Positions 22,595 to 61,737 of a DNA stretch of 64,000 nt are shown piece by piece. The DNA is taken from contig JAZPXL010000020.1 of NCBI GenBank assembly GCA_045543615.1, positions 14,107 to 78,106 of the forward strand, written 5' to 3'. A program made the translations under genes and the position numbers. The stretch's first letter is position 1, and every line of letters begins with the position of its first letter. Under the pieces are notes generated by a model, which saw only the letters and a program-made list of their open reading frames with translations, did not search any database and was not told the DNA's origin. This DNA comes from Eubacteriales bacterium (GTDB taxonomy: Bacteria; Bacillota; Clostridia; Oscillospirales; CAG-272).

Positions 22595-24148
22595 TTATTT
22601 CTTCTTGCCGATCACAAGAGCTCCAAGTGAAACTGTTGCGATGAGAGCGAGAGGTGCAAGTGCGAGAGAGGATGCACAACCGCCGTCGGTCTGTGTTGTG
22701 GAGTCTGTATCGTCTGCAGGAGCCTGTGTAGCATCATCTGAGGGAGCTTGTGTTGTAACATCGTCCTCAGCAGCTGTTGTCTCGTCGGACTCGAGCTTGG
22801 GAAGGATCTCTGTTTCAAGAACAGCGTGGCAGACGGAGCACTCTTTGTGGCGGCTACCTGCGTACTTGTCGGAGGGTTCCTTATCAACTATCCACTCGTC
22901 AGAGGGAGTGTGAGGAAGTGTATCAACGAAATCACCCTGGTAGCTTACGCCACAGTCCTTACAGGTGTATGTGGTGTAACCACGCTCGCCACATGTGGGA
23001 GGTGTTACAACTGCTTCGTAATTGTGACCTTCGATCATTGCATTTGTTACTGCGGGAAGAACAACGTTGATGTCAGTTGCGCTTACTACCCAACCCTTGT
23101 ATGTCTCGGTAGCCTTGAATGCTGCAAAGCCGGGAAGAGAAGCTGCGGGAGCTGTCTTAATGTCGTTTACTTCCTTACCATCGTAAATATATGTGATGTC
23201 GGTTGCAGTCTCGTTTGTGAAGAGAGCTGTTGTGCCTGTTGAAGGATCATAATAAACATCCTCGAACTTGATGTTTGCTGTGTTTGCCTGACAGAATGCG
23301 CCGAGTACAGCGAACTTCTCCGGAGCTGTTACTGTGCCGCCGTTGTAGAAGCGTGTAACTGTAGCTGTTGCACCGCAGCATCCTACGATAGCACCTGCGT
23401 ACTCAACGGAGGAAACGATCTCACCGTAGTTTGCGCAGTCTGTGAATGTGAGGGACTGTGCATTGTTCTGAACAGTTCCTATGAAGCCACCGCTACGGGA
23501 GGGGCTTTCGCACTTACCTGCGAATACGCAGTTCTCGAATACTACGTTTGAGCCGTCGGGAGTGGAAGCAACAAAGCCGCCTGCTGTACCCATTTCAGCT
23601 TTCATAATAGCATCAACGTAAACGTTGGAGAAGGTGAGAGTGCCGGTCTTTACTGAGCAAACGATAGCGGCGTTGTAGCGGCTAACTGAGAAGGAGCAGT
23701 TTTCAAACTTAAGATCCTTGATAACAACGTTGCCGTTGGTTGTAACGATGAAGCCACCGTTGGAATTGTCAGGAATATCTACACAAACACCCTTGATTGT
23801 GTGACCCTGACCATCAAATGTTCCGCGGAAGTCCCACATAGGCTGCCACAGATTGGTGGGCTTTGTGCCGGAGGATGCGTCCCAACCGGGATTGAGGTCG
23901 ATGTCTGCTGTGAGCTTGATAACCTTGCCGTCATAGTTTGCGTTTGCAGGTCTCTTAGCTGCTACTGAGAGTAATTCCTCGGCAGTAGATACTTCAAATA
24001 CGCCGTCACCATCAGCGTCGCCCCAGTTAGGGTCGTGGGTGTATGTAGGTGTAGACTCTGTGCTTGTTGCAGATGCAAATACTGTGCAGAATGTTGCACA
24101 AAGCATAACAGCAAGCAGGAATGCGATTGTTCTAAGCTGAGTTTTCAT
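22595..24148 (-). CDS. Secreted beta-helix surface protein with C-terminal GGC-TM-basic tail
   Basis: Paralog of the 21025 gene (ADIDLNPGWDASSGTKP); Cys-rich PTC..GYTTYTCxxCG repeats; ends DGGCASSLALAPL...GKKK. Confidence 0.8.
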   Translation of the reverse strand: MKTQLRTIAFLLAVMLCATFCTVFASATSTESTPTYTHDPNWGDADGDGVFEVSTAEELLSVAAKRPANANYDGKVIKLTADIDLNPGWDASSGTKPTNLWQPMWDFRGTFDGQGHTIKGVCVDIPDNSNGGFIVTTNGNVVIKDLKFENCSFSVSRYNAAIVCSVKTGTLTFSNVYVDAIMKAEMGTAGGFVASTPDGSNVVFENCVFAGKCESPSRSGGFIGTVQNNAQSLTFTDCANYGEIVSSVEYAGAIVGCCGATATVTRFYNGGTVTAPEKFAVLGAFCQANTANIKFEDVYYDPSTGTTALFTNETATDITYIYDGKEVNDIKTAPAASLPGFAAFKATETYKGWVVSATDINVVLPAVTNAMIEGHNYEAVVTPPTCGERGYTTYTCKDCGVSYQGDFVDTLPHTPSDEWIVDKEPSDKYAGSRHKECSVCHAVLETEILPKLESDETTAAEDDVTTQAPSDDATQAPADDTDSTTQTDGGCASSLALAPLALIATVSLGALVIGKKK

Positions 24149-53777: not shown

Positions 53778-53805
53778 AATGACCGTCGCCGATAAGGAGA
53801 CAGAT

Positions 53806-53881
53806 GGGAGCATAGCTCAGCTGGGAGAGCATCTGCCTTACAAGCAGAGGGTCATAGGTTCGAGCCCTATTGTTCCCACCA
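53806..53881 (+). tRNA. tRNA-Val(TAC)
   Basis: Cloverleaf; anticodon loop CT-TAC-AA; GTTCGA; encoded CCA. Confidence 0.97.
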
Positions 53882-53888
53882 ATTAAAT

Positions 53889-53965
53889 GGCCCGGTAGCT
53901 CAGTTGGTTAGAGCGCCAGCCTGTCACGCTGGAGGTCGTGGGTTCGAGCCCCATCCGGGTCGCCA
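53889..53965 (+). tRNA. tRNA-Asp(GTC)
   Basis: Anticodon loop CT-GTC-AC; CCA end. Confidence 0.97.
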
Positions 53966-53993
53966 TTTAATAAAAATACAGCCCTTGCTGTAT

Positions 53994-54069
53994 GCCTCTG
54001 TAGCTCAGTTGGTAGAGCAGGGGACTGAAAATCCCCGTGTCGTTGGTTCAATTCCGACCGGAGGCACCA
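53994..54069 (+). tRNA. tRNA-Phe(GAA)
   Basis: Anticodon loop CT-GAA-AA; CCA end. Confidence 0.97.
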
Positions 54070-54074
54070 TTTAT

Positions 54075-54150
54075 GCGGATTTAGCTCATTTGGTAGAGCG
54101 CAACCTTGCCAAGGTTGAGGTGGCGGGTTCGATCCCCGTAATCCGCTCCA
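54075..54150 (+). tRNA. tRNA-Gly(GCC)
   Basis: Anticodon loop TT-GCC-AA; CCA end. Confidence 0.97.
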
Positions 54151-54187
54151 AAAAACACGGGTACGAGATTCGTACCCGTTATTATTA

Positions 54188-54262
54188 GGCGCCATAGCCA
54201 AGCGGTAAGGCAGAAGTCTGCAAAACTTTTATTCCCCGGTCCGATTCCGGGTGGCGCCTCCA
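54188..54262 (+). tRNA. tRNA-Cys(GCA)
   Basis: Anticodon loop CT-GCA-AA; U73 discriminator; CCA end; atypical T-loop TCCGATT. Confidence 0.93.
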
Positions 54263-54299
54263 AAAAGAGCAGGACACCAAAAGGTGTCCTGCTCTTTTT
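54262..54299 (+). terminator. Terminator hairpin A, copy 1
   Basis: aaaaagagcaggacacc-aaaa-ggtgtcctgctcttttt. Confidence 0.85.
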
Positions 54300-54506
54300 G
54301 GACGTGCTACGCACGAACCGGACTGCGCTCGGCGTTTCAAGCAAAATCGGGCGCACTTCTCTTTACTTTTTCATCTGACTGCATTGGGAATCACAATGTA
54401 GCCGAATCCGGTTCGCATTCGCCACTCGGAGATCGGCAAGCTCGCTTGCCAGGCGTAGAGTGTGCGAATATTCGCCACAGGCGAAATTCCGGGAACGTGG
54501 CGCAAA

Positions 54507-54558
54507 ACCTCTTGCAATCCCCCCCAATGTATGCTATAATAAAACCAGAAAGGTGGTG
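54507..54558 (+). promoter_or_regulatory. Cassette promoter/RBS block P1, copy 1
   Basis: TTGCAA-17-TATAAT with TG extension, C7 spacer, AGAAAGGTGGTG. Confidence 0.8.
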
Positions 54559-54563
54559 AGAAT

Positions 54564-54929
54564 ATGAACACCAAGAATGTTAGTAAAACCAAAATATCTT
54601 TTTCCAAAATATCTTTTTTAATATTGCTTCTCCATTTTGTGTATGCGGCATTATTTGCAATTTTTATGTTGATTGCAGGATTGCTGGAGGAACCTTGTAA
54701 CAGAGATGGAATTTACTTGGTGTTTTCGATAATTTCGATAGCCCTTCTTTGCTTTTTCCCATTTGCTGCAACCGGCATAAATAATGCAAGTATTGCTTTT
54801 CAAATTCTGGCATTGCTACAAAACGAATCTAAGGTCAAGAACATTGTTATGATGGCGATTGCAATATCGTATGAAATTGCTGTTATTATATTCTTTATTT
54901 GGTTTTGGCAGGGCGCTATGGGAGTATAG
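54564..54929 (+). CDS. Cassette gene 1: small 3-TM membrane protein
   Basis: 121 aa, three hydrophobic segments, own promoter and RBS. Confidence 0.75.
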   Translation: MNTKNVSKTKISFSKISFLILLLHFVYAALFAIFMLIAGLLEEPCNRDGIYLVFSIISIALLCFFPFAATGINNASIAFQILALLQNESKVKNIVMMAIAISYEIAVIIFFIWFWQGAMGV

Positions 54930-54930
54930 C

Positions 54931-54994
54931 GGCATCTTTTTTGTCAACACGTCTCCAAAAATTAAAGCGACCTTTCGAGGTCGCTTTAATTTTT
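54931..54994 (+). repeat. Junction motif J1 plus terminator B
   Basis: GGCATCTTTTTTGTCAACACGTCTCCA then aaaattaaagcgacct-ttcg-aggtcgctttaatttt. Confidence 0.8.
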
Positions 54995-55230
54995 ATCCAA
55001 GCCGACGAAGGAGGCTTGGTATGTAATCAACGCGCTTGCGCGTTGTATGTAATTGCGACGGAGTCGCGCAGTATGGCATCACGCGCAAGCGTGTATAAAT
55101 TCGTCGGCTTGATAACATACAACACTTCGTGTTGATTCCATACCGCAACAAGTTGCGGATTACATTCAAGGCTACGCCTTGATTTCATCCACGCCTTCGG
55201 CGTGATGTGCGCTTCGCGCAAACGAATTTT
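54995..55230. repeat. Multi-hairpin REP/BIME-like module Y
   Basis: Short palindromes joined by GTATGTAATC / GATTACATAC-like linkers in opposite orientations; outer stem 54998-55009 with 55100-55111. Confidence 0.75.
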
Positions 55231-55235
55231 TCCTG

Positions 55236-55287
55236 ACCTCTTGCGCTCCCCCCCAATGTATGCTATAATAAACTCAGAAAGGCGGTG
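55236..55287 (+). promoter_or_regulatory. Cassette promoter/RBS block P1, copy 2
   Basis: TTGCGC-17-TATAAT, near-identical to 54507-54558. Confidence 0.8.
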
Positions 55288-55292
55288 GAGAT

Positions 55293-55769
55293 ATGCTCAT
55301 AAAAAAACAAGATTGTACAATGGACATTGATATTAAGAAAACAAAAGAGTATTATCAAACACATTCACTTTGTGATTGTCCCTGCTGTCGAAATTATTAT
55401 GCTCAAGTAAAACAAAGGTTTCAATTAGTGGATGAGTTATTGTCTGAATTTGGGGTGTCTATCGAGTGCCCTGACGAGCTTGGAAGTGTAGAATGGAAAG
55501 ACGAAATTCTATACATTTTCGCTTCGTATACCGTGTGTGGAAAAATCTTGGAACTTGATAAATACGAAATTGATATAAATGATGGCGGGTTGTTTTTGAA
55601 AATTGTCATTGGTGATGACTATGTTCCAAACGAACAGAAAACGGATTATTTTGTTGTAACGATTTACAATATAATTTTGCCTTGGGTGTTAAATGAGCCC
55701 TTTCCTACATCCGTTCCTTACAAAAATAGCTTTTTCGATAAAATCAAGTCGTTGTTTTTAAAAAAATAA
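55293..55769 (+). CDS. Cassette gene 2: hypothetical protein with a CxCxxC motif
   Basis: 158 aa; LCDCPCCRNY. Confidence 0.75.
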   Translation: MLIKKQDCTMDIDIKKTKEYYQTHSLCDCPCCRNYYAQVKQRFQLVDELLSEFGVSIECPDELGSVEWKDEILYIFASYTVCGKILELDKYEIDINDGGLFLKIVIGDDYVPNEQKTDYFVVTIYNIILPWVLNEPFPTSVPYKNSFFDKIKSLFLKK

Positions 55770-55817
55770 TAGGCATCTTTTTGCACGTGCTACGCACATC
55801 TCGCTACGTGCTCTGTG

Positions 55818-55943
55818 CGCCAAAGGTGCAACTGCTTGAAAGTTGCGCATTCATGCCGTCGGGGACGCCGGTCCCTACATTTTTTCTTCAACGTATTGCG
55901 CCCCGCCAAAAGATATGCTATAATAAGACCAAGAAAGGCGGTG
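55818..55943 (+). repeat. Module Z plus promoter P2, copy 1 (contains a GTAG-type REP on the minus strand)
   Basis: Near-identical to 56709-56834; TTGCGC-17-TATAAT; AGAAAGGCGGTG. Confidence 0.85.
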
Positions 55944-55948
55944 GAGAT

Positions 55949-56599
55949 ATGTTTAAGAGAATTTTTGCACTATTCATTTCGCTATTCACATTGGCAACAT
56001 TTACAGGTTGTAATGATACAAACGTTGAGCCTTTGAGTGATGAAGAAAAAGCCGCGCTTGTAAGCAACAGCTTCTCTTCGGATACGTTTTTTAACGTCAA
56101 AGAGGGAGAAGACCTGACAAGCGAAGAGATAAGAGATGTTGTTTCAAATATCCCATCAGAAAAATATGAGTCTTATCCCGACATACACAACATTCCACTT
56201 TCTGCAACACTCTACAAGGACGGAGAATCTATATTATTGGAGAGAAACGATCCCAGACTTATCGGGATCATCAATTTCTTTAACAACTGTGTTTATCATT
56301 CTCAATGCGCTTACACACAAGGACTGCTGTCCTTGGATTATCTTGAGGAAAACGTTACTGGTTCTGACTTCAGACTTGAACTGAAATACACACCGTGTAG
56401 CAATACAGCCCCCATGGCGTACGGCAAATCTACTACAGGGTGCGACACGATTATTATAACAAATTCTTCCTCGGGCTTTACATTGATAGCTCACGAGATT
56501 CCCGGATATGATGGCCAGGAGGAGGCGTATCCTTACAGTGCTATAGGATTCGCTCCGTTGTATAATAGTTACCCGTGGCTTGAGTTGTTTGGCTTTTGA
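55949..56599 (+). CDS. Cassette gene 3: hypothetical lipoprotein
   Basis: Start MFKRIF after RBS; lipobox FTGC; 216 aa. Confidence 0.75.
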   Translation: MFKRIFALFISLFTLATFTGCNDTNVEPLSDEEKAALVSNSFSSDTFFNVKEGEDLTSEEIRDVVSNIPSEKYESYPDIHNIPLSATLYKDGESILLERNDPRLIGIINFFNNCVYHSQCAYTQGLLSLDYLEENVTGSDFRLELKYTPCSNTAPMAYGKSTTGCDTIIITNSSSGFTLIAHEIPGYDGQEEAYPYSAIGFAPLYNSYPWLELFGF

Positions 56600-56609
56600 T
56601 ATTGCGAAT

Positions 56610-56672
56610 GGCATCTTTTTTGTCAACTCACCTCAAAAAGAGCAGGACACCTTTTGGTGTCCTGCTCTTTTT
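56610..56672 (+). repeat. Junction motif J3 plus terminator A, copy 2
   Basis: GGCATCTTTTTTGTCAACTCACCTCA then aaaagagcaggacacc-tttt-ggtgtcctgctcttttt. Confidence 0.85.
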
Positions 56673-56708
56673 GGACGTGCTACTCACAAAGCGCAACCCG
56701 GCTCCGCA

Positions 56709-56834
56709 CGCCAAAGGTACAACTGCTTGAAAGTTGCGCATTTGGACCGTCGAGGACGCCGGTCCCTACATTTTTTCTTCAACGTATTGCGCCCCGCCAA
56801 AAGATATGCTATAATAAGACCAAGAAAGGCGGTG
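56709..56834 (+). repeat. Module Z plus promoter P2, copy 2
   Basis: Direct repeat of 55818-55943; minus-strand GTAG-GGACCG...CGGTCC at 56744-56769. Confidence 0.85.
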
Positions 56835-56836
56835 AT

Positions 56837-57367
56837 ATGATGAGCAGTTATAATGGAATATCTATATCTGAATATCGTTTGCCCATTATGTATATAATTT
56901 ACATTCTTCTTGCTGTTGCTCTTATTATTGCTGCATTATTTTTACTTTGTCAAATATTAAACAATCAAAATAAAAAAACGATTCAAAGAATAAAAGAATT
57001 ACGTAAAAAAGCCGTAACCGATGAGCAGGCTGCCAAGCAATTAGCAAAAATGGAACGAAAAATCAAGAGGCGACGAAAGAAAAACAGAGGCGATTTGATT
57101 TTTTACGTATTTCTTTTCGCTTTGGTAATTGGATTTGAGTTATTCATTGTTATTGGCGGCATAGCCCCCTTGGTAACCGATCATATTGTTAAAGACTATG
57201 TTGTATATACAGGAGAAATAAAAGTTTGCGATAACTTTAAGCGTCCTTATATTGAGCTTGAAGATGGGACAATTGTAAGAGGTGGTACAGAACTTACAGA
57301 AGAAGACACCTACGGAACGGTTGTATATGCCAAAAGAAGCAAAATAGCACTTGGTGGTGAAAAATAA
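56837..57367 (+). CDS. Cassette gene 4: 2-TM membrane protein with a basic loop
   Basis: Start after AAAGGCGGTG; two TM segments flanking a K/R-rich coil. Confidence 0.75.
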   Translation: MMSSYNGISISEYRLPIMYIIYILLAVALIIAALFLLCQILNNQNKKTIQRIKELRKKAVTDEQAAKQLAKMERKIKRRRKKNRGDLIFYVFLFALVIGFELFIVIGGIAPLVTDHIVKDYVVYTGEIKVCDNFKRPYIELEDGTIVRGGTELTEEDTYGTVVYAKRSKIALGGEK

Positions 57368-57370
57368 AGC

Positions 57371-57431
57371 GGCTTCTTTTTTGTCAACACGTCTCAAAAA
57401 AATCCTGAAAGCTCTGCTTTCAGGATTTTTT
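57371..57431 (+). repeat. Junction motif J4 plus terminator C
   Basis: GGCTTCTTTTTTGTCAACACGTCTCA then aaaaaatcctgaaagc-tct-gctttcaggatttttt. Confidence 0.8.
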
Positions 57432-57592
57432 CATTTGTGTCCGCAGGACACAACATCATTTGAGCGTCAGCTCAACATCATTCCGCCGTAGGCGGACACA
57501 AATGAACGAGGTTGCACTTCGTGCAAATGATGTGCTTCGCAATGATGTGATGCTTCGCATCAATGATGTTGCGCTTCGCGCAAACGAATTTT
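57430..57592. repeat. Multi-hairpin REP/BIME-like module Y'
   Basis: Hairpins joined by AACATCATT / AATGATGT linkers; outer stem 57430-57444 with 57492-57506; ends in the same 23-mer as module Y. Confidence 0.75.
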
Positions 57593-57604
57593 GCCCCTCA
57601 GGTC

Positions 57605-57651
57605 TTGAAAAACACCGAAAACTGTGCTATAATAAAACCAGAAAGGCGGTG
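57605..57651 (+). promoter_or_regulatory. Cassette promoter/RBS block P3
   Basis: TTGAAA-17-TATAAT then AAAACCAGAAAGGCGGTG. Confidence 0.8.
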
Positions 57652-57656
57652 GGATT

Positions 57657-58085
57657 ATGAAAAACAAAAAATTACTTTTCATTATACTCGGTGTTTTAGT
57701 AGTTTGCTTTGTTGGAGCTACTTTTTTCTTTGTATCTCAAGGAATTTTGGCCTCAAATAAGGAACAGAAATATGTTGACTTTTATCGGAACGAAGCAGAA
57801 GAATATATTAAAGCGAATTCTGAAATGTTAAACAAGTACGGAGATGATTTTTCCGTTGACTTTGACAACTCAGTTACATATTCCTTAAGCGAAGAGAGAG
57901 GATTTTTTGATAGATATATTGAGCTCTTTGCTCCCAAGGTCCCCGACACAATTGAGGAATTCACCGATGGAATAGATGCAATAAAATTCGGTTTTGAGAT
58001 CAAAAGAGACAAATACGAAATAATTTTTGAGAAAAATAGCGATGGAGAGCTTGTTGTTACAAATCTGTCGGAAAAAAACAAATAA
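57657..58085 (+). CDS. Cassette gene 5: secreted or membrane-anchored hypothetical protein
   Basis: 142 aa; basic N-terminus plus hydrophobic stretch. Confidence 0.75.
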   Translation: MKNKKLLFIILGVLVVCFVGATFFFVSQGILASNKEQKYVDFYRNEAEEYIKANSEMLNKYGDDFSVDFDNSVTYSLSEERGFFDRYIELFAPKVPDTIEEFTDGIDAIKFGFEIKRDKYEIIFEKNSDGELVVTNLSEKNK

Positions 58086-58091
58086 TATTTC

Positions 58092-58239
58092 GACGTCTTT
58101 TTTGTCATTCGCCCGAACTCAAACGCACCCGAAAGGGTGCGTTTTGTATTGGCAAACGTATCTGAAGCGCATCGCTCTCCGCACGCCAAAGGTAAAACTG
58201 ATTGAAAGTTGCGCATTCATGCCGTCGGGGACGACGGTC
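58092..58239 (+). repeat. Degenerate junction J5, hairpin D and partial module Z
   Basis: GACGTCTTTTTTGTCA; aaacgcacc...ggtgcgttt; cgccaaaggta..ttgaaagttgcgcattcatgccgtcggggacg. Confidence 0.7.
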
Positions 58240-58375
58240 GCTGTGGTTTTCTCCAATCTCTTGCTTATCGCCACAAAGTGTGTTATAATAAATTATGATT
58301 ATTCGGACTATTGCGGAGAGACACCGTGGACGGAATTAATTGAGCAGTACATAGAAAAATAAGTGATAATTATAG

Positions 58376-58591
58376 GAGTTTGGGCTATCGCCAATACAAT
58401 ATATCAATGACATAAAGATGAGGAGGGGTATGTATTTGCTTGAGACTACGTCAAGGCCCGTCGGTGAGACAGCCTATGAGTGTGGATTTTCAGATTATCC
58501 CTATTTTTACAAGCGATTTGTGCGCAAGACAGGTCTGTCTCCTATGCGACGGGGACGGCAGATTCATCAAAACCCACACTCGAGGAAATAG
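58376..58591 (+). pseudogene. AraC C-terminal HTH remnant
   Basis: Translates EFGLSPIQYINDIKM...LLETTSRPVGETAYECGFSDYPYFYKRFVRKTGLSP; in-frame TAG directly upstream. Confidence 0.7.
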
Positions 58592-58731
58592 CCACAAGAA
58601 AATGCAGGGGAAATATTGAAATTATCAAACCGGTTGTGATATAATATAAAAAATATGTTGAGTATGTTTGTTGTGTTTTATATTAGTTTCTGCTTGTCGG
58701 CAGGAGAAAATTTTTTAATGGAGTTGTTGTT

Positions 58732-60768
58732 ATGAAAAAGTTATTTGTTGCGCTTTTGTGTGCGGTTCTATTGCTTTCCGTACTATTATTGAGTGCTTGC
58801 ACTCCTGACTCGCCTAACACACCACAGGGCGAGGAGAGCACTCCCGATGGCGTCGGTGAGGTTTTGGGCTCTGAAGGCTTGACCTACGAGCTTAACTGGC
58901 AGGGCAACGGCTATATCGTTACAGGTAAGGGAACTTGCACAGACAAGAGGGTCGTTATCCCCTCGACATATAATGGATTGCCCGTTCTTAGCATTGGAAA
59001 TGGAGCATTCAGCGAGAAAACGCCTCCAAGCGATAATAATCAATCGGGTGGCACTACCAATGATAAAGACAAAAAGGGGCTTGGAGTGTTCGCTTTTGGC
59101 ACAAGAACACTTTCGTCTATCACCTCTTCAATTAGCTTTAGCTTGCTGTCGGACACCTCTGCCACGGATGGCGATGGTATTACAGAGGTTGTTATTCCAG
59201 ACAGCGTGATGGATATTGGCGACAATGCGTTCTATGGTTGCGAATCGCTTGCTTCCTTTGAGGTTTCAAATCTGGTTAACCTTATTGGAACTGACGCTTT
59301 CAAGGATACGGCGTACTATCTCGATGAGTCAAACTGGACGGGGGACGCTTTGTATTTGGAAGAATATTTAGTGGCAGTTCGCCCCACTGTTGTCGGCGAG
59401 TGGGTGGTGCGTGATGGCACAGTAAATATTGCAAGCAATGCCTTTGAGGGATGTGTTGGTATTACGTCAGTTTCTTTTCCTTCGTCTTTGCGTTTTGTTG
59501 GAAAGATGGCATTTATGGGATGCACTGGAATCACGGAGATTGATTTAACTATTCCCGGCATTCAAATTGAAAACTACGCATTTAAGGATTGCACATCTCT
59601 TACAACTATTATGATTGGTACGGACGACATTCCAAATGCACCACCTGTTGAGTCTTTTTGGGGTGTAGGTCTTGAGGGAGATGCCGTATTTATGCCGGGT
59701 GGAGTTTCGGATATTGCATTCAATCCCAAAGCCGATCCGAATTATATCTACTCAGGATCTATTGGTCATCAGGCTTTCTGTGGATGCACATCTCTTACAT
59801 CCGTAACTCTTGGCTCAAATATTGGCTATCTTGGAGGCTTCATATTTGAGGGTTGCTCTGCGCTCAAAGAAGTCGATTTGAGTATGATTAAGGTTTATAC
59901 ACCCGATACAGTCATTGTAACGCCCGGATACAATCACCGTTGGCATATGTCACTTCAGGGCATATTCAAGGATTGTACATCGCTTGTAGACATCAAGCTA
60001 CCTGAGGGTATTGCTTGGCTTGACAGAACCTTTGAGGGCTGTACATCTATCACGGAATTTGTTGTGCCTGATACAGTAAAGGGGCTTAACGGAACATTCA
60101 TCAACTGTTCGTCTCTTCTGAGTGTAAGCATTCCCGAAAGTGTGGTGGCTCTGTCAAAAACATTTATAAATTGTAGTGCTCTCCGTGAGATTACTCTTCC
60201 TCAAAAGCTTGTAAAGATTGGTGACGAAACTTTCTTTTACTGTAATTCGCTTATATATGTATATGTTCCCGACTCTGTTACAGAGATCGGCAATCAAGTT
60301 TTTGTGGGCAATCCTGAGGTAGGTATGAACGTTTCCTTTGGTAAAGGAGTGGAGAAGGTCTTTGATGATTGCGTAACAACTGCTGATGCAATTGTGTTCC
60401 GAGGAACTGTGGAAGAGTGGAAAAAATCTCCGTTTTATAATAAAGTTAATTGCCACAACCCACTCGGAGCGGGCTCTGATGTTATTTGCACAGATGGAAC
60501 AATAATCGGAGATGATGTTGTTGTTGATACTATGAAGGGTATTAAGCTCTCCGACGGCACTCTTTATGTAAGCTTTAAGGACGTTACTTTTCAATACACT
60601 CCGGGTGTTATTGAATCGGTAATATCTCGCAGTCTTGATGAAATAGAGGCAGAGCTTGTGTCAAGTGGATCGATGAGCTGGACGAGAGTCAAAGCAATTG
60701 ATCTGTTGCAGACTAAAACGAATCGAAATATATCTACATACGGCCATATCAGAGAAATGATACAGTAA
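58732..60768 (+). CDS. BspA-type leucine-rich repeat lipoprotein
   Basis: Lipobox LSAC; many IPDSV..IG..AF.GC.SL repeats. Confidence 0.88.
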   Translation: MKKLFVALLCAVLLLSVLLLSACTPDSPNTPQGEESTPDGVGEVLGSEGLTYELNWQGNGYIVTGKGTCTDKRVVIPSTYNGLPVLSIGNGAFSEKTPPSDNNQSGGTTNDKDKKGLGVFAFGTRTLSSITSSISFSLLSDTSATDGDGITEVVIPDSVMDIGDNAFYGCESLASFEVSNLVNLIGTDAFKDTAYYLDESNWTGDALYLEEYLVAVRPTVVGEWVVRDGTVNIASNAFEGCVGITSVSFPSSLRFVGKMAFMGCTGITEIDLTIPGIQIENYAFKDCTSLTTIMIGTDDIPNAPPVESFWGVGLEGDAVFMPGGVSDIAFNPKADPNYIYSGSIGHQAFCGCTSLTSVTLGSNIGYLGGFIFEGCSALKEVDLSMIKVYTPDTVIVTPGYNHRWHMSLQGIFKDCTSLVDIKLPEGIAWLDRTFEGCTSITEFVVPDTVKGLNGTFINCSSLLSVSIPESVVALSKTFINCSALREITLPQKLVKIGDETFFYCNSLIYVYVPDSVTEIGNQVFVGNPEVGMNVSFGKGVEKVFDDCVTTADAIVFRGTVEEWKKSPFYNKVNCHNPLGAGSDVICTDGTIIGDDVVVDTMKGIKLSDGTLYVSFKDVTFQYTPGVIESVISRSLDEIEAELVSSGSMSWTRVKAIDLLQTKTNRNISTYGHIREMIQ

Positions 60769-60939
60769 AAAACTCAAAGCAGAAGCGATGCTCTTGCATC
60801 GATTCTGCTTTTTGTAGAAATTTGGGGCTTTTGCAAAAAAATTTACCTGATTGACAAATCAATATGACAGCACTTGTGTTGCAAAATGCGCTTGTCTGTG
60901 ATATAATAGCTGTTGAAAAACGGAAAGAGAGGTGCTGTT

Positions 60940-61737
60940 ATGTTCTTAACAAAAAACAGCCTTTGGAAAATTGTTATTATGGCTATTGCCTATTTCGTTA
61001 TAGGCACCATCGGCGTTACGCTTGGTATTCTTTTTATGGTTTACGGTTACGATTGGTTGATACTGTACCTTGGTATTGCTATGCTTTGTCTCTGTCCTCT
61101 CATCGTCCTTTGGGGGTTGTACGCTGAGGGCAAGGGCAAGCTTATAAATCTTGGGCGCAAGCTTATTTTCAATGACCTGCGCCCTCGTGATTTTATTAGG
61201 GAATACGACAGGCTCAGAAGTACGGGAGATCTTGTTATAAACAAGCCGAGCTTTGAGATTTTGCAGTTTTTGATTGTGGCTTATGATTCACTTAATGAAA
61301 GGGAGCGTGCGCTCGCTGTTGCTGATGAGCTTATTTTGATGGCGAGCGAGAAGAAGAAGGCTTTGGCAAAGCTTTATAAGGTGAGCCTTTTATTTGCCTA
61401 CGGAATGGTAGAAGAGGGCGAGGAGCTTTTCGTTTCGGTTCAGCGCGAAAAGCTTGATTTTGTCGCCAAGGGCTTTGTGAATAATCTTTACAAGAGTGAC
61501 CGTGCAATTGCTATTGGAGATTATAAAACTGCAGAAATGCACAATTTAAGCACGCTTGAGAGTGCGTCATCCCAAACTCCTCTTGTAGTTCTGATTGCCC
61601 ATTTTTCTTTGGGTGAGATTTATGTTAAGCTTGGAGATGCAGAGAAGGCTGTGGTGCATCTTGAGTATTGTACCAAAAACTGTGGAGAGACGGCGATAGG
61701 AAAGTCGGCATCCGAGGCTCTTGAAAAGATTATATAA
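60940..61737 (+). CDS. Membrane protein with a TPR-like helical domain
   Basis: Two N-terminal TM segments; HFSLGEIYVKLGDAEKA. Confidence 0.65.
   Translation: MFLTKNSLWKIVIMAIAYFVIGTIGVTLGILFMVYGYDWLILYLGIAMLCLCPLIVLWGLYAEGKGKLINLGRKLIFNDLRPRDFIREYDRLRSTGDLVINKPSFEILQFLIVAYDSLNERERALAVADELILMASEKKKALAKLYKVSLLFAYGMVEEGEELFVSVQREKLDFVAKGFVNNLYKSDRAIAIGDYKTAEMHNLSTLESASSQTPLVVLIAHFSLGEIYVKLGDAEKAVVHLEYCTKNCGETAIGKSASEALEKII

Follow-up and report, generated by a model that had tools for sequence, protein, structure and literature searches.

Layout of the array behind tRNA-Cys

The window, that is, the whole stretch of 64,000 nucleotides analysed here, belongs to a MAG of 2.12 Mb (96%-complete, 60 contigs, many of which end in array repeats). 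On the 3' side of a tRNA-Cys gene it carries five small, AT-rich, unrelated and co-oriented genes, each framed by the same start and end motifs, with the following features.

53806..54262, +, tRNA-Val/Asp/Phe/Gly/Cys cluster (ARAGORN; Rfam tRNA, 62-70 bits)
54188-54262, +, tRNA-Cys, the anchor of the array (ARAGORN)
54261..54300, +, T0, terminator-like palindrome adjoining the CCA end of tRNA-Cys (repeat comparison)
54398..54505, +, repeat module B (75-91% matches in L102, L024, L017, L113, L141 and others)
54506..54563, +, promoter TTGCAA-17-TGcTATAAT and leader 1
54564..54929, +, cargo g1, 121 aa, multi-pass membrane protein, family not assigned
54931..54948, +, post-stop motif 1, GGCATCTTTTTTGTCAAC (motif search)
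54957..54994, +, terminator-like hairpin 3' of g1 (repeat comparison)
54990..55233, +, tandem hairpin array 1, short GC hairpins with TATGTAAT/ATTCCATA-type linkers (matches in L039, L106, L073, L109)
55235..55292, +, promoter and leader 2
55293..55769, +, cargo g2, 158 aa, cytosolic, conserved unnamed family
55772..55783, +, post-stop motif 2, truncated to GGCATCTTTTTG, its T-run fused to the GTGCTACGCAC module
55802..55876, +, repeat module C, copy 1 (repeat comparison)
55890..55948, +, promoter and leader 3
55949..56599, +, cargo g3, 216-aa lipoprotein
56610..56627, +, post-stop motif 3 (motif search)
56634..56693, +, second copy of T0 and downstream GGACGTGCTAC (88% repeat match)
56693..56767, +, repeat module C, copy 2 (repeat comparison)
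56781..56836, +, promoter and leader 4
56837..57367, +, cargo g4, 176 aa, membrane protein with a charged coiled segment
57371..57388, +, post-stop motif 4, GGCTTCTTTTTTGTCAAC (motif search)
57397..57431, +, intrinsic-terminator-like hairpin, 16 pairs and a T run (repeat comparison)
57430..57595, +, tandem hairpin array 2, CATCAT/ATGATG linkers
57599..57656, +, promoter TTGAAA-17-TGcTATAAT and leader 5
57657..58085, +, cargo g5, 142 aa, N-terminal membrane anchor
58092..58107, +, post-stop motif 5, degenerate, GACGTCTTTTTTGTCA (repeat comparison)
58168..58242, +, repeat module C, copy 3 (repeat comparison)
58255..58365, +, sixth unit, decayed, with a leaderless promoter and ~75 nt similar to the 3' end of cargo from another cassette
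58418..58591, +, C-terminal fragment (57 aa) of an AraC-type HTH protein, distal edge of the array (HTH_18 9e-09, HTH_AraC 1.1e-06)

The first-pass annotation had described five unrelated, AT-richer genes in this position, and each of g1-g5 does form a BLASTP cluster of its own (E 1e-5), rather than being a tandem paralog of the others, with a GC content of 33-41%, below that of the genome (46%) and of the spacers (43-51%). Each slot ends in an A-tract/hairpin/T-tract terminator followed by repeat-module filler. The T0 copy at 56634-56673 has its loop flipped relative to that at 54261..54300, and part of the decayed sixth unit (58291-58365) is matched by L031 and L119 at 79-80%. A hairpin-rich module had been described before every gene; true tandem hairpin arrays stand upstream of g2 and g5 only, and other repeat modules precede g1, g3 and g4. 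Module B also occurs elsewhere in the host genome (C47) and in the arrays of other species, and the hairpin arrays represent a genome-wide repeat class that is not specific to the locus. REP/BIME elements, which are associated with RAYT transposases, likewise comprise short, GC-rich hairpins that recur in families across the genome and cluster behind genes and terminators; unlike these, the hairpins studied here form regular tandem arrays (23-25 nt period, constant linkers, ~100 different stems) and no Y1/RAYT transposase was found. Together, terminators and hairpin arrays would insulate the units, so that each cargo gene may be expressed separately.

Scaffold motifs, their distribution and the cargo

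Each slot has a promoter of the extended -10 type (TTGnnn-17-TGnTATAAT) and a short, fixed 5' UTR with an interrupted long Shine-Dalgarno (SD) block of 12 nt, AGAAAGGCGGTG, the leader at g1-g5 reading ATAATAA-N3-6-AGAAAGGYGGTG-N2-5-ATG. An own promoter and a shared leader had been claimed for each gene, and both are present; the promoter block occurs in six copies and not five (68-100% identity to the reference copy), the sixth (58255-58292) being without a leader. The trailer, a GGCATCTTTTTTGTCAAC-type motif of ~17 nt, starts 1, 2, 10, 3 and 6 nt past the stop codons of g1-g5, in keeping with the ~11 nt given earlier, and its copies after g2 (truncated) and g5 are degenerate. The pattern TGCTATAATAA-N3-6-AGAAAGGYGGTG has six matches in the 2.12-Mb genome, five at the locus and one behind tRNA-Trp on contig C41, and the reversed-pattern control has none. 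With a fixed 4-nt gap the leader has three matches in the window, where 100 shuffles gave 0, and a trailer search allowing up to three mismatches gave three matches against 0.07 expected. Rather than surrounding ordinary genes genome-wide, the full motifs are confined in the host genome to the tRNA-Cys array and a second array behind tRNA-Trp. The SD block is distinct from the ordinary SD of the genome, in which GGAGG precedes 259 of 1460 long ORFs and GGCGG precedes 11. At metagenome loci selected by the trailer its central base is C in 22 cases, T in 2 and A in 0, and an invariant central C could be due to a protein that recognises it instead of to descent.

Within the genus the scaffold occurs in 15 of 38 genomes (reversed-pattern control, 0), and a sample of 150 other genomes from the same order gave 0; genome contigs of ruminant-gut Clostridia MAGs contain at least 120 scaffold stretches. 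The SD block is also found in 26 of 120 metagenome loci picked by the trailer alone, and in all 25 units considered the leader lies 2-10 nt before the ATG and the trailer 1-10 nt past the stop codon. A co-oriented tRNA gene lies within 3 kb upstream of 64 of 125 leaders; an opposite-strand tRNA upstream occurs for 4 and a same-strand tRNA downstream for none of the 125. The earlier choice of tRNA-Cys as anchor holds in part, since it accounts for 20 of these 64, with tRNA-Trp, Gln, Tyr and Ser also being used and some single cassettes remote from any tRNA. Gene content behind tRNA-Cys differs between species (G007, G178/G179, G176 and ~14 more).

None of g1-g5 reaches the Pfam cut-off, and the g2 family, with invariant C27/C29/C32, comprises 118 homologue clusters. 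Across the clade, 121 complete ORFs behind the leader form 74 unrelated clusters (BLASTP, E 1e-5), which bears out the notion of a conserved scaffold around variable cargo, and each Pfam family is matched by at most two of the 74 cluster representatives. The commonest cargo is IVP genes (16 of 121 ORFs) and no immunity family was detected among the cargo. As the cargo consists mostly of small membrane proteins, lipoproteins or orphan cytosolic proteins, accessory surface or interaction functions are suggested.

Exchange of cargo and the search for an enzyme

Cross-species comparisons, all of which are based on MAGs, revealed the same cargo at 96-99.5% identity between species, the SD block and GTCAA marking the limits of the homology. 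For the g3 unit identity amounts to 96.2% in L159 (734 nt) and 96.9% in L062 (717 nt), above the 77.2% and 76.1% of the respective tRNA regions, and the sequences 5' of the -10 and 3' of GTCAA are unrelated. A cargo of 266 aa, 99.1-99.5% identical in three species, lies behind two different promoter types, and between L067 and L076 a cassette with its filler is 98.9% identical, the next native gene being 87.4% identical. Among 32 ORF pairs of at least 90% identity, upstream homology stops at 28-42 nt in 9 and downstream homology at 11-37 nt in 12; the spacer from -10 to SD differs among copies of one cargo and that from SD to ATG travels with it. Read from such alignments, cargo is shown to reassort against promoters and terminators and to move between species, with recombination junctions falling in the SD block (12 nt), in the trailer (~17 nt) and at the T-runs of terminators.

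The earlier statement that the window has neither recombinase nor canonical attC stood up: contig C20 carries no tyrosine recombinase, all five of the genome being elsewhere, and none of the six spacers has an attC core pair (R''/R'). As to the recombinase supplied in trans that it inferred, a tblastn search with the six recombinases of the genome over array loci totalling 1.57 Mb found tyrosine recombinases at 1 locus and serine recombinases at 4, and a recombinase adjoining the array is absent in the window and in almost all of ~260 array loci. Metagenome contigs yielded no clean junction of circular cassettes, the 'goes back' joints lying in repeat modules and having extra letters. Repeat comparison of the window found no inverted or direct repeats bounding the units, and no partial tRNA repeat of att type exceeds 9 nt. 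The proposal of gene capture is supported in part, for the conserved scaffold, the anchoring at tRNA 3' ends, the differing content and the nearly identical units, and not for a recombinase acting on the motifs, a circular or excised form, partial-tRNA repeats or an accretion of cassettes at the tRNA end in particular. Because the host genome is an incomplete MAG with many contigs ending in array repeats, a recombinase could be unassembled.

Related systems and competing explanations

By analogy, the closest counterparts would be the Bacteroidales rAID-1 arrays and tRNA-anchored islands. The former (recombinase-associated acquired interbacterial defence; Ross et al., bioRxiv 10.1101/471110) share with this array co-oriented low-GC accessory genes, strain-variable content, signs of horizontal acquisition and repetitive intergenic sequences, described as 'reminiscent of integrons'. 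Here, in contrast, there is a tRNA anchor, no adjacent recombinase and no detected immunity family, and the hosts are Clostridia MAGs. Tycheposons of Prochlorococcus (Hackl et al., bioRxiv 10.1101/2020.12.28.424599) are 10-20 kb long, carry their own integrase and leave partial tRNA repeats; their islands similarly adjoin the 3' side of several tRNA species and accumulate partly degraded material, whereas the present units are of 0.6-0.9 kb with a single gene, no integrase and a partial tRNA repeat of at most 9 nt. Integrons, and CALINs, which are arrays without integrase (Cury et al. 2016, PMC4889954), resemble the array in having a conserved scaffold around variable single genes, boundaries close to the ORF, one orientation throughout and, for CALINs, no integrase. 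However, two different boundary motifs replace the single attC and no IntI is present. Identity with an integron was rejected because the attC core pair and an adjacent recombinase are absent and each cassette has its own promoter in place of Pc.

An assembly or binning artefact, namely a repeat-induced chimera, is barely credible. The spacers are indeed high-copy repeats, with scaffold bin depths of hundreds to ~1,270 against 0-25 in most cargo bins, and many contigs of relatives break at the tRNA cluster, but independent assemblies from many projects and hosts recovered this architecture, one example being a metagenome contig of 11,960 nt with four trailers, and g2 followed by g3 recurs behind tRNA-Cys in G007. 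This last order, at 74% and 68% nucleotide identity, indicates that part of the array is old and inherited, and modules C and T0 are local duplicates; an ordinary vertically inherited region, its leader and trailer being a duplicated regulatory scaffold without movement, is nevertheless improbable given nearly identical cargo whose flanks are unrelated from one species-level genome to another, one cargo family behind tRNA-Trp, tRNA-Tyr and tRNA-Ser in different genomes, and one scaffold for so many unrelated clusters. More doubtful still are cassettes made from transcripts, whereby an mRNA starting at the SD block (~7 nt past the -10) would be reverse transcribed from a priming site near the trailer and reinserted behind a resident promoter, perhaps assisted by IVP four-helix-bundle proteins, relatives of DGR Avd. 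The 5' junction does match the transcription start expected from the usual spacing to the -10, IVP genes lead the cargo, all three of the host genome lie just downstream of tRNAs, and they occur in 15 of 15 leader-positive against 11 of 23 leader-negative genomes of the genus, a co-occurrence confounded by phylogeny. Yet the sole RT of the genome lies in a prophage-like DGR region (C58) with none seen near arrays, and the trailer, being upstream of the terminator, is not the transcript's end.

A dedicated, integron-like capture, in which a recombinase encoded elsewhere would act on the SD block and/or the trailer, or on the tRNA-side terminator, to insert, excise and exchange non-autonomous cassettes in the 3' flanks of tRNA genes, we regard as rather unlikely. 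It would fit junctions inside 12-17 nt motifs across independent cargo families, ORF-precise boundaries, a conserved central C where ordinary SDs have GGAGG, and an association with five tRNA species that is strictly downstream and co-oriented. L076 has an extra block (IVP gene, small cassette, trailer) between the tRNA-Cys CCA and the filler common to L067, and integron cassettes likewise enter beside the fixed end; a serine-recombinase element immediately 3' of the tRNA-Cys CCA in G002 indicates that recombinases use this site. In two of four metagenome runs, contigs join the tRNA-Cys end to g1's terminator across the 9-nt repeat CTCCAAAAA; these joints have short sides (21-34 nt) in the contig data and may derive from other organisms. 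Against such capture stand the missing recombinase, attC core pair, bounding repeats, longer tRNA repeat and clean circle, and two different boundary motifs would require a two-site exchange.

We give about an even chance to the locus being a tRNA-anchored flexible island of self-contained single-gene expression cassettes, a family common to a ruminant-gut Clostridia clade, with exchange and insertion guided by shared short sequences and the tRNA. The motifs and the conserved tRNA gene would act as homology anchors, and host general recombination functions, or another function, would carry out the exchange; an integrase of the integron type encoded at the locus is not part of this proposal. 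Ordinary exchange between repeat modules, many of which are shared, accounts for the same breakpoints. For RecA-type recombination, however, 12 and 17 nt make very short flanks, and homology-guided exchange does not account for how unrelated ORFs first gained leader and trailer so near to ATG and stop. Since neither recombinase, circular form nor partial-tRNA repeat was found, the mechanism may be motif-guided homologous exchange or a dedicated capture system. Literature searches turned up no description of such a cassette system, and the recurrence of these framed genes, nearly identical, in other gut-bacterial species suggests that single genes are traded in a manner not yet described.

Architecture of the array behind tRNA-Cys

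The genes following tRNA-Cys had been described in the first-pass annotation as five unrelated, co-oriented and AT-richer genes, and this description holds, as the cargo genes g1 to g5 form five separate BLASTP clusters with a GC content of 33-41 %, against 43-51 % for the spacers and 46 % for the genome. The features of the array, in window coordinates, are as follows.

53806-54262, + strand: genes for tRNA-Val, Asp, Phe, Gly and Cys (ARAGORN)
54564-54929, + strand: g1, ORF co-oriented with tRNA-Cys
55293-55769, + strand: g2, ORF co-oriented with tRNA-Cys
55949-56599, + strand: g3, ORF co-oriented with tRNA-Cys
56837-57367, + strand: g4, ORF co-oriented with tRNA-Cys
57657-58085, + strand: g5, ORF co-oriented with tRNA-Cys
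58255-58292, + strand: sixth promoter copy (D1 repeat), leader absent
58418-58591: 57-aa C-terminal fragment of an AraC-type HTH protein, without the N-terminal part, at the distal array edge

Each unit possesses its own -35/-10 block, carried by a 38-nt promoter block (repeat family D1) that occurs in six copies spaced 655-891 nt apart, two of which are detected by a promoter scan at 10-11 of 12. Five of the six copies continue into a leader of the form ATAATAA-N3-6-AGAAAGGYGGTG-N2-5-ATG, in agreement with the earlier claim of a promoter and leader on each gene. The trailer, GGCATCTTTTTTGTCAAC or a degenerate version of it, starts 1, 2, 10, 3 and 6 nt past the stop codons of g1 to g5 respectively, that is, within the distance of about 11 nt proposed before. 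The sixth promoter copy runs into approximately 75 nt similar to the 3' end of another cassette's cargo, and the AraC-type fragment beyond it looks like a gene cut short by the island; given this leaderless promoter, cargo remnant and gene fragment, the distal end of the array is decayed. Immediately past the array, 58732-60768 encodes a 678-aa BspA-type leucine-rich-repeat lipoprotein (LRR_5, 8e-60). The window ORF 60913-61737 encodes a 274-aa membrane protein, which has an ordinary promoter here and lies outside the scaffold. Homologues of the latter occur within tRNA-Cys arrays in the related genome G007 and at locus L140, and the G007 copy has leader-like sequence 5' and trailer-like sequence 3'.

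The leader exceeds chance and is locus-specific. It was not matched in 100 shuffles of the window, and the reversed pattern had no match in the 2.12-Mb genome, where the leader itself has six matches, five in this array and one in an array behind tRNA-Trp on contig C41. Outside the array the sub-motifs match rarely in this genome (two matches for the SD block, five for TCTTTTTTGTCA), mostly within coding sequence and once after an ordinary terminator; the only such match in a cassette context is the SD block of the tRNA-Trp array. The SD block differs from the normal ribosome-binding site of this organism: among 1460 long ORFs, 259 have GGAGG upstream and 11 have GGCGG. SD usage was counted directly because the 16S 3' end is missing from this MAG assembly; the anti-SD sequence is presumably the usual one. 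On a metagenome contig of 11,960 nt (L201), an array with four trailers includes one leader in which a small additional hairpin (TTTGACGCAAGCGTCAAA) separates the -10 element from the SD block. The trailer on this contig also closes cargoes as long as 355-416 aa, which shows that small genes are not the only ones framed.

The spacers are composed of repeats. The palindromic terminator that follows tRNA-Cys (T0, 54261-54300) recurs 2.4 kb away, after g3 (56634-56673), along with its downstream GGACGTGCTAC, with the same stems and an inverted loop; the second copy is 100 % identical to the first over 42 nt as the reverse complement and 91 % in direct orientation. Module C, a spacer repeat, is present in three copies in the array (D2); the spacer repeat B and the two hairpin arrays have matches at many further loci, in this genome as well as in others. 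A search of the spacers against Rfam gave no match apart from a below-threshold mir-627 on the T0 palindrome. Examples of the tandem hairpin arrays are listed below.

54990-55233, window: tandem hairpin array
57430-57595, window: tandem hairpin array
C12:14102-14388, elsewhere in this genome (G000): tandem hairpin array
C33:11552-11811, elsewhere in this genome (G000): tandem hairpin array
C54:36189-36497, elsewhere in this genome (G000): tandem hairpin array

Genome-wide, 61 such arrays with 293 units and 101 distinct stems were found, against two arrays in a shuffled genome; no Rfam family was identified for them. The stems are 5-7 and the loops 3-4 long, separated by constant linkers of 6-8 nt (CATCAT/ATGATG, ATGATATA, TATGGAAT) with a modal period of 23-25 nt. 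At least four hairpins lie within 450 nt downstream of 15 of the 27 terminal tRNA genes with enough downstream sequence, as compared to 2.9 % of random windows, and hairpin arrays are also enriched at contig ends. The hairpin-rich module noted at first pass is therefore real as a feature of the region but is not private to the cassettes, and it is better regarded as context, since these arrays occur throughout the genome and are enriched after tRNAs.

Cargo diversity, tRNA linkage and exchange between species

The motif search proposed at first pass, through this genome and related MAGs, limited the full leader to two arrays here. Within the genus, 15 of 38 genomes have the leader, frequently in 2-4 copies at 0.6-0.9 kb spacing, whereas a sample of 150 other genomes from across the order gave no match. 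A scan with one genome per species recovered at least 120 stretches with the leader; nearly all of those listed are MAGs of Clostridia, Eubacteriales or Oscillospiraceae, and their hosts include sheep, deer, yak, goat and rabbit (gut). Some matches, in Lachnospiraceae, Phascolarctobacterium, Longicatena, Acholeplasmataceae and Thermacetogenium, stand in front of ordinary genes; these matches in unrelated taxa may be chance or convergent, and they are kept in the cargo-cluster and tRNA-anchor counts. Among the matches listed, 121 complete ORFs behind leaders fall into 74 unrelated clusters, a count that retains locus L064, which is the same contig as L034 (clusters 6 and 7 hold one duplicate each from this pair) and was left out of the pair comparisons. 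No Pfam family matches more than two of the 74 cluster representatives. The trailer lies 1-10 nt past the stop codon in 25 of the 121 units among the matches listed. A metagenome scan with the trailer alone returned at least 120 loci; the SD block is present too in 26 of the 120 listed, and its central base in the trailer-selected loci listed is C in 22 cases, T in two and A in none. The same kind of scan with 32 nt across the tRNA-Cys end and T0 found no match.

For g1 to g5 themselves, no Pfam cut-off was reached, no NCBIfam, PADLOC or PHROG assignment was obtained, and a PDB sequence profile search yielded nothing usable; g2 has 118 homologue clusters, none of them named. Contigs from an RNA library (run X15) overlap parts of g2, g3 and g5, which is not taken as expression because DNA carry-over is possible.

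Linkage to tRNA genes has a strict polarity. Among the matches listed, a tRNA on the same strand lies no more than 3 kb upstream of 64 of 125 leaders (Cys 20, Trp 13, Gln 13, Tyr 8, Ser 5, others 5); opposite-strand tRNAs lie upstream of four and downstream of three of the 125, and same-strand tRNAs downstream of none. The GGCATCTTTTTTGTCAA trailer is associated with tRNA-Cys, in that 10 of the 20 units with this trailer lie behind tRNA-Cys and the other 10 have no tRNA in view; other recurrent trailers are found on arrays behind tRNAs other than Cys. Single cassettes are found away from tRNAs as well. Anchoring at tRNA 3' ends, as first proposed, is thus borne out for about half of the listed leaders, but it is not confined to tRNA-Cys and some cassettes are tRNA-free. 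A count placing a leader within 1.5 kb of 19 of 19 tRNA-Cys genes was set aside as biased, the loci having been selected by leader.

Further tRNA-linked loci in this genome comprise the following.

G000 C41:21394-24421: second array (L006), behind tRNA-Trp
G000 C41:21931-22239: gene for a 23S_rRNA_IVP (IVP) four-helix-bundle (Avd-like) protein
G000 C55:42306-42602: IVP / four-helix-bundle (Avd-like) gene
G000 C55:38695-38973: IVP / four-helix-bundle (Avd-like) gene

The tRNA-Trp array is ordered as an IVP gene, an overlapping 134-aa gene and a leader-driven 174-aa membrane protein; its trailer differs (..GGGGCTTCAGACACCTTTTGTTCG..), and its cargo family is also found behind tRNA-Tyr and tRNA-Ser in other genomes. 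All three IVP genes of this genome lie just 3' of tRNA genes (Trp, Tyr, Gln), and within the genus the family reaches eight copies per genome. Among the matches listed, no other cargo is as frequent behind leaders as IVP (16 of 121), and in near-identical copies homology stops exactly at the stop codon, the point at which a variable partner gene adjoins or overlaps. Co-occurrence of IVP genes and leaders was discounted as support for a mechanism, being confounded by phylogeny. In the congener G002 (L019, G002:C11:1-2700), an element whose end is formed by the gene for a large serine recombinase is inserted right at the CCA of tRNA-Cys in the syntenic cluster, and no terminator separates the two.

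Comparison of the content after tRNA-Cys among relatives, which had been suggested earlier, revealed differences. Behind the syntenic tRNA cluster, G007 carries a 99-aa gene, a 267-aa gene (the homologue of the window ORF 60913-61737), g2, a 110-aa gene, g3 and further genes, with nucleotide identities to this genome of 74 % for g2 and 68 % for g3. The array genes of G178 and G179 encode 181 and 231 aa, those of G176 are different again, and the first cargo differs in each of about 14 further species. Two other species-level genomes carry the g3 unit at 96.2 % and 96.9 % identity, with tRNA regions only 77.2 % and 76.1 % identical to this one; in the three-way alignment the sequences are unrelated upstream of the -10 element and downstream of GTCAA. 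Similarly, g2 shows 95.0 % identity over 499 nt at L095, where the match is cut off by the locus end, and a 266-aa cargo is 99.1-99.5 % identical across three species, yet has two different promoter types. Between L067 and L076, cassette plus filler are 98.9 % identical, against 87.4 % for the adjoining native gene, and the sequence in which these two loci differ lies between the A-run that follows the CCA and a terminator T-run.

In 32 pairs with ORF identity of at least 90 %, upstream homology ends at 28-42 nt in nine and downstream homology at 11-37 nt in 12, as judged by local extension with one of 32 upstream and three of 32 downstream cases omitted where the anchor was not aligned; identity profiles from global alignment were uninformative, forced alignments giving 0.0 or about 0.55. 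In the other pairs homology extends further, as would be expected of orthologous loci or of units with common filler. The -10-to-SD spacer varies among copies of one cargo, whereas the SD-to-ATG and stop-to-trailer spacers travel with the cargo, which places the junctions within the 12-nt SD block and the trailer of about 17 nt. Terminator T-runs form a third junction type, and the g2 trailer is fused to a GTGCTACGCAC module.

Public sequencing runs contain at most 0.27 of the sampled words of 53800-58700 in any one run. In four runs, scaffold bins are hundreds to about 1,270 deep and most cargo bins 0-25; cover was taken from contigs, and cargo bins without cover in some runs are uninformative either way. 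Some run contigs connect one unit's leader-ATG with another unit's trailer, or lead from the tRNA end via CTCCAAAAA into the terminator that follows g1, at joints with short sides that do not permit assignment to this species. The depth contrast and these mixed joints fit many alternative cargoes in similar, community-wide slots.

Comparison with known mobile systems

Integrons combine an IntI-type tyrosine recombinase adjoining the array with promoterless cassettes driven from a common Pc, and each cassette is followed by attC, in which R'' RYYYAAC and R' GTTRRRY surround an imperfect palindrome. The present array resembles them in its co-oriented, unrelated single-gene cassettes with content varying between relatives, but it has a promoter per unit and neither IntI nor attC. 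The tyrosine recombinase family PF00589 is detected at five places in the genome, none of them on contig C20 and hence none in the window, and both strands of the six spacers lack any attC core pair (a single RYYYAAC, no GTTRRRY), as the first reading had noted on both counts. With no core pair, no integrase on the contig and a promoter per unit, the array is neither an integron nor a CALIN.

REP/BIME elements with RAYT depend on a Y1 (HUH) transposase in the genome, and MITEs or other IS-derived elements have terminal inverted repeats with target-site duplications at unit ends. PF01797 (Y1) has no match in this 96 %-complete genome, the control being positive in 6 of 14 reference genomes, so this is not a REP/RAYT system. 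The repeat search found no inverted pair around any unit, the inverted repeats detected being local hairpins; by eye, leader-trailer pairing and terminal inverted repeats amount to 6-7 pairs at most.

The rAID-1 clusters of Bacteroidales have an XerD-like tyrosine recombinase on the 5' side (with 44 % or more identity to BF9343_RS08045), at least two co-directional low-GC downstream genes with repetitive intergenic sequence, and orphan immunity genes as cargo (bioRxiv 10.1101/471110). Our array is similar in its co-directional, low-GC cargo and its repeat families D1-D9, but in the domain search neither the window nor the rest of C20 gave a tyrosine recombinase. The intergenic sequences of rAID-1 (their Fig. 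S4) may contain a related motif. Tycheposon-like islands have an element-encoded site-specific integrase and direct repeats of the tRNA 3' end (bioRxiv 10.1101/2020.12.28.424599). The array likewise lies directly 3' of a tRNA gene in the same orientation, but such an integrase is absent. The last 30 nt of tRNA-Cys, compared with 54301-58700 (blastn-short), gave only the 9-nt CTCCAAAAA and separate matches of 7-8 nt, too short to be accepted as evidence of integrase-type insertion. A possible remnant, ATTCCGGG..GTGGCGC at 54486-54503, was likewise dismissed, consisting of two short matches unconserved in module B of other species. The strong repeat near tRNA-Cys is the following terminator and not the tRNA itself, and as tRNA repeats never exceed 9 nt, this is not a classical integrase island. 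The array shares its logic with integrons and rAID-1 and its location with tycheposon islands, and the defining parts of all three are missing here. No description of the scaffold, the tRNA-adjacent IVP genes or the hairpin arrays was found in the literature searched.

Possible mechanisms and significance

The arrays consist of insulated, single-gene units for expression, framed in a fixed manner on the 5' and 3' sides and situated downstream of tRNAs; their cargo has been reassorted and crosses species boundaries, with junctions within the frames. The shared short sequences and the conserved tRNA may act as anchors that guide this exchange, a reading to which we give about an even chance, and the mechanism itself has a real chance of being new. 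The main rival, a dedicated capture enzyme acting in trans, is favoured by frames that are precise to the ORF, by the unvarying C of the SD block and by the strictness of the tRNA polarity, but no associated recombinase, att repeat or circle was found. Homologues of the genome's recombinases (tblastn) adjoin arrays at only 5 of about 260 loci, so the look for a co-occurring recombinase suggested at first pass yielded almost nothing. Circular cassettes, also suggested then and sought in contigs, yielded only 'goes back' joints (56650 -> 54284, 56770 -> 55856), which were rejected as circles since they lie in the duplicated T0 and C repeats and carry extra letters. We regard this rival as rather unlikely. 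In its fullest form it would be an undescribed, ORF-precise capture system of gut Clostridia, with a trans enzyme outside the integron integrases, that places foreign genes between the fixed leader and trailer of insulated slots equipped with promoters 3' of tRNAs, a proposal we hold to be doubtful to the same degree; the tRNA-adjacent, multi-copy four-helix-bundle (IVP/Avd-like) proteins or an RNA intermediate may be involved in it.

Purely vertical inheritance of the cargo is improbable, being contradicted by the cross-species identities. An origin of the cassettes from transcripts is possible but thin, and more doubtful still, for the sole reverse transcriptase of the genome is encoded on another contig in a prophage-like region. 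An assembly artefact, which independent assemblies contradict, is the least credible reading of all. In the prophage-like region (C58:33013-48167), the reverse transcriptase (461-aa ORF) adjoins a 1363-aa protein, with an integrase present too, and the region is probably a diversity-generating retroelement (DGR); on the same contig, at 23171-23244, ARAGORN reports an unusual tRNA whose anticodon has four letters (aact).

If the cassettes are exchanged as units, evolution would have arrived independently a second time at what integrons achieve, here in Gram-positive anaerobes of the gut, in which integrons are rare, and with promoter and insulation supplied by each cassette. The sharp, ORF-precise boundaries bear on how gene cassettes originate. 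Leader and trailer also account for MAG breaks at tRNA loci, and the hairpin arrays and tRNA-adjacent IVP genes are features of the same islands. Together, leader and trailer provide two short, specific handles for fetching the traded accessory genes of this clade from metagenomes, a small sample of this ruminant-gut clade having already given 74 cargo clusters.
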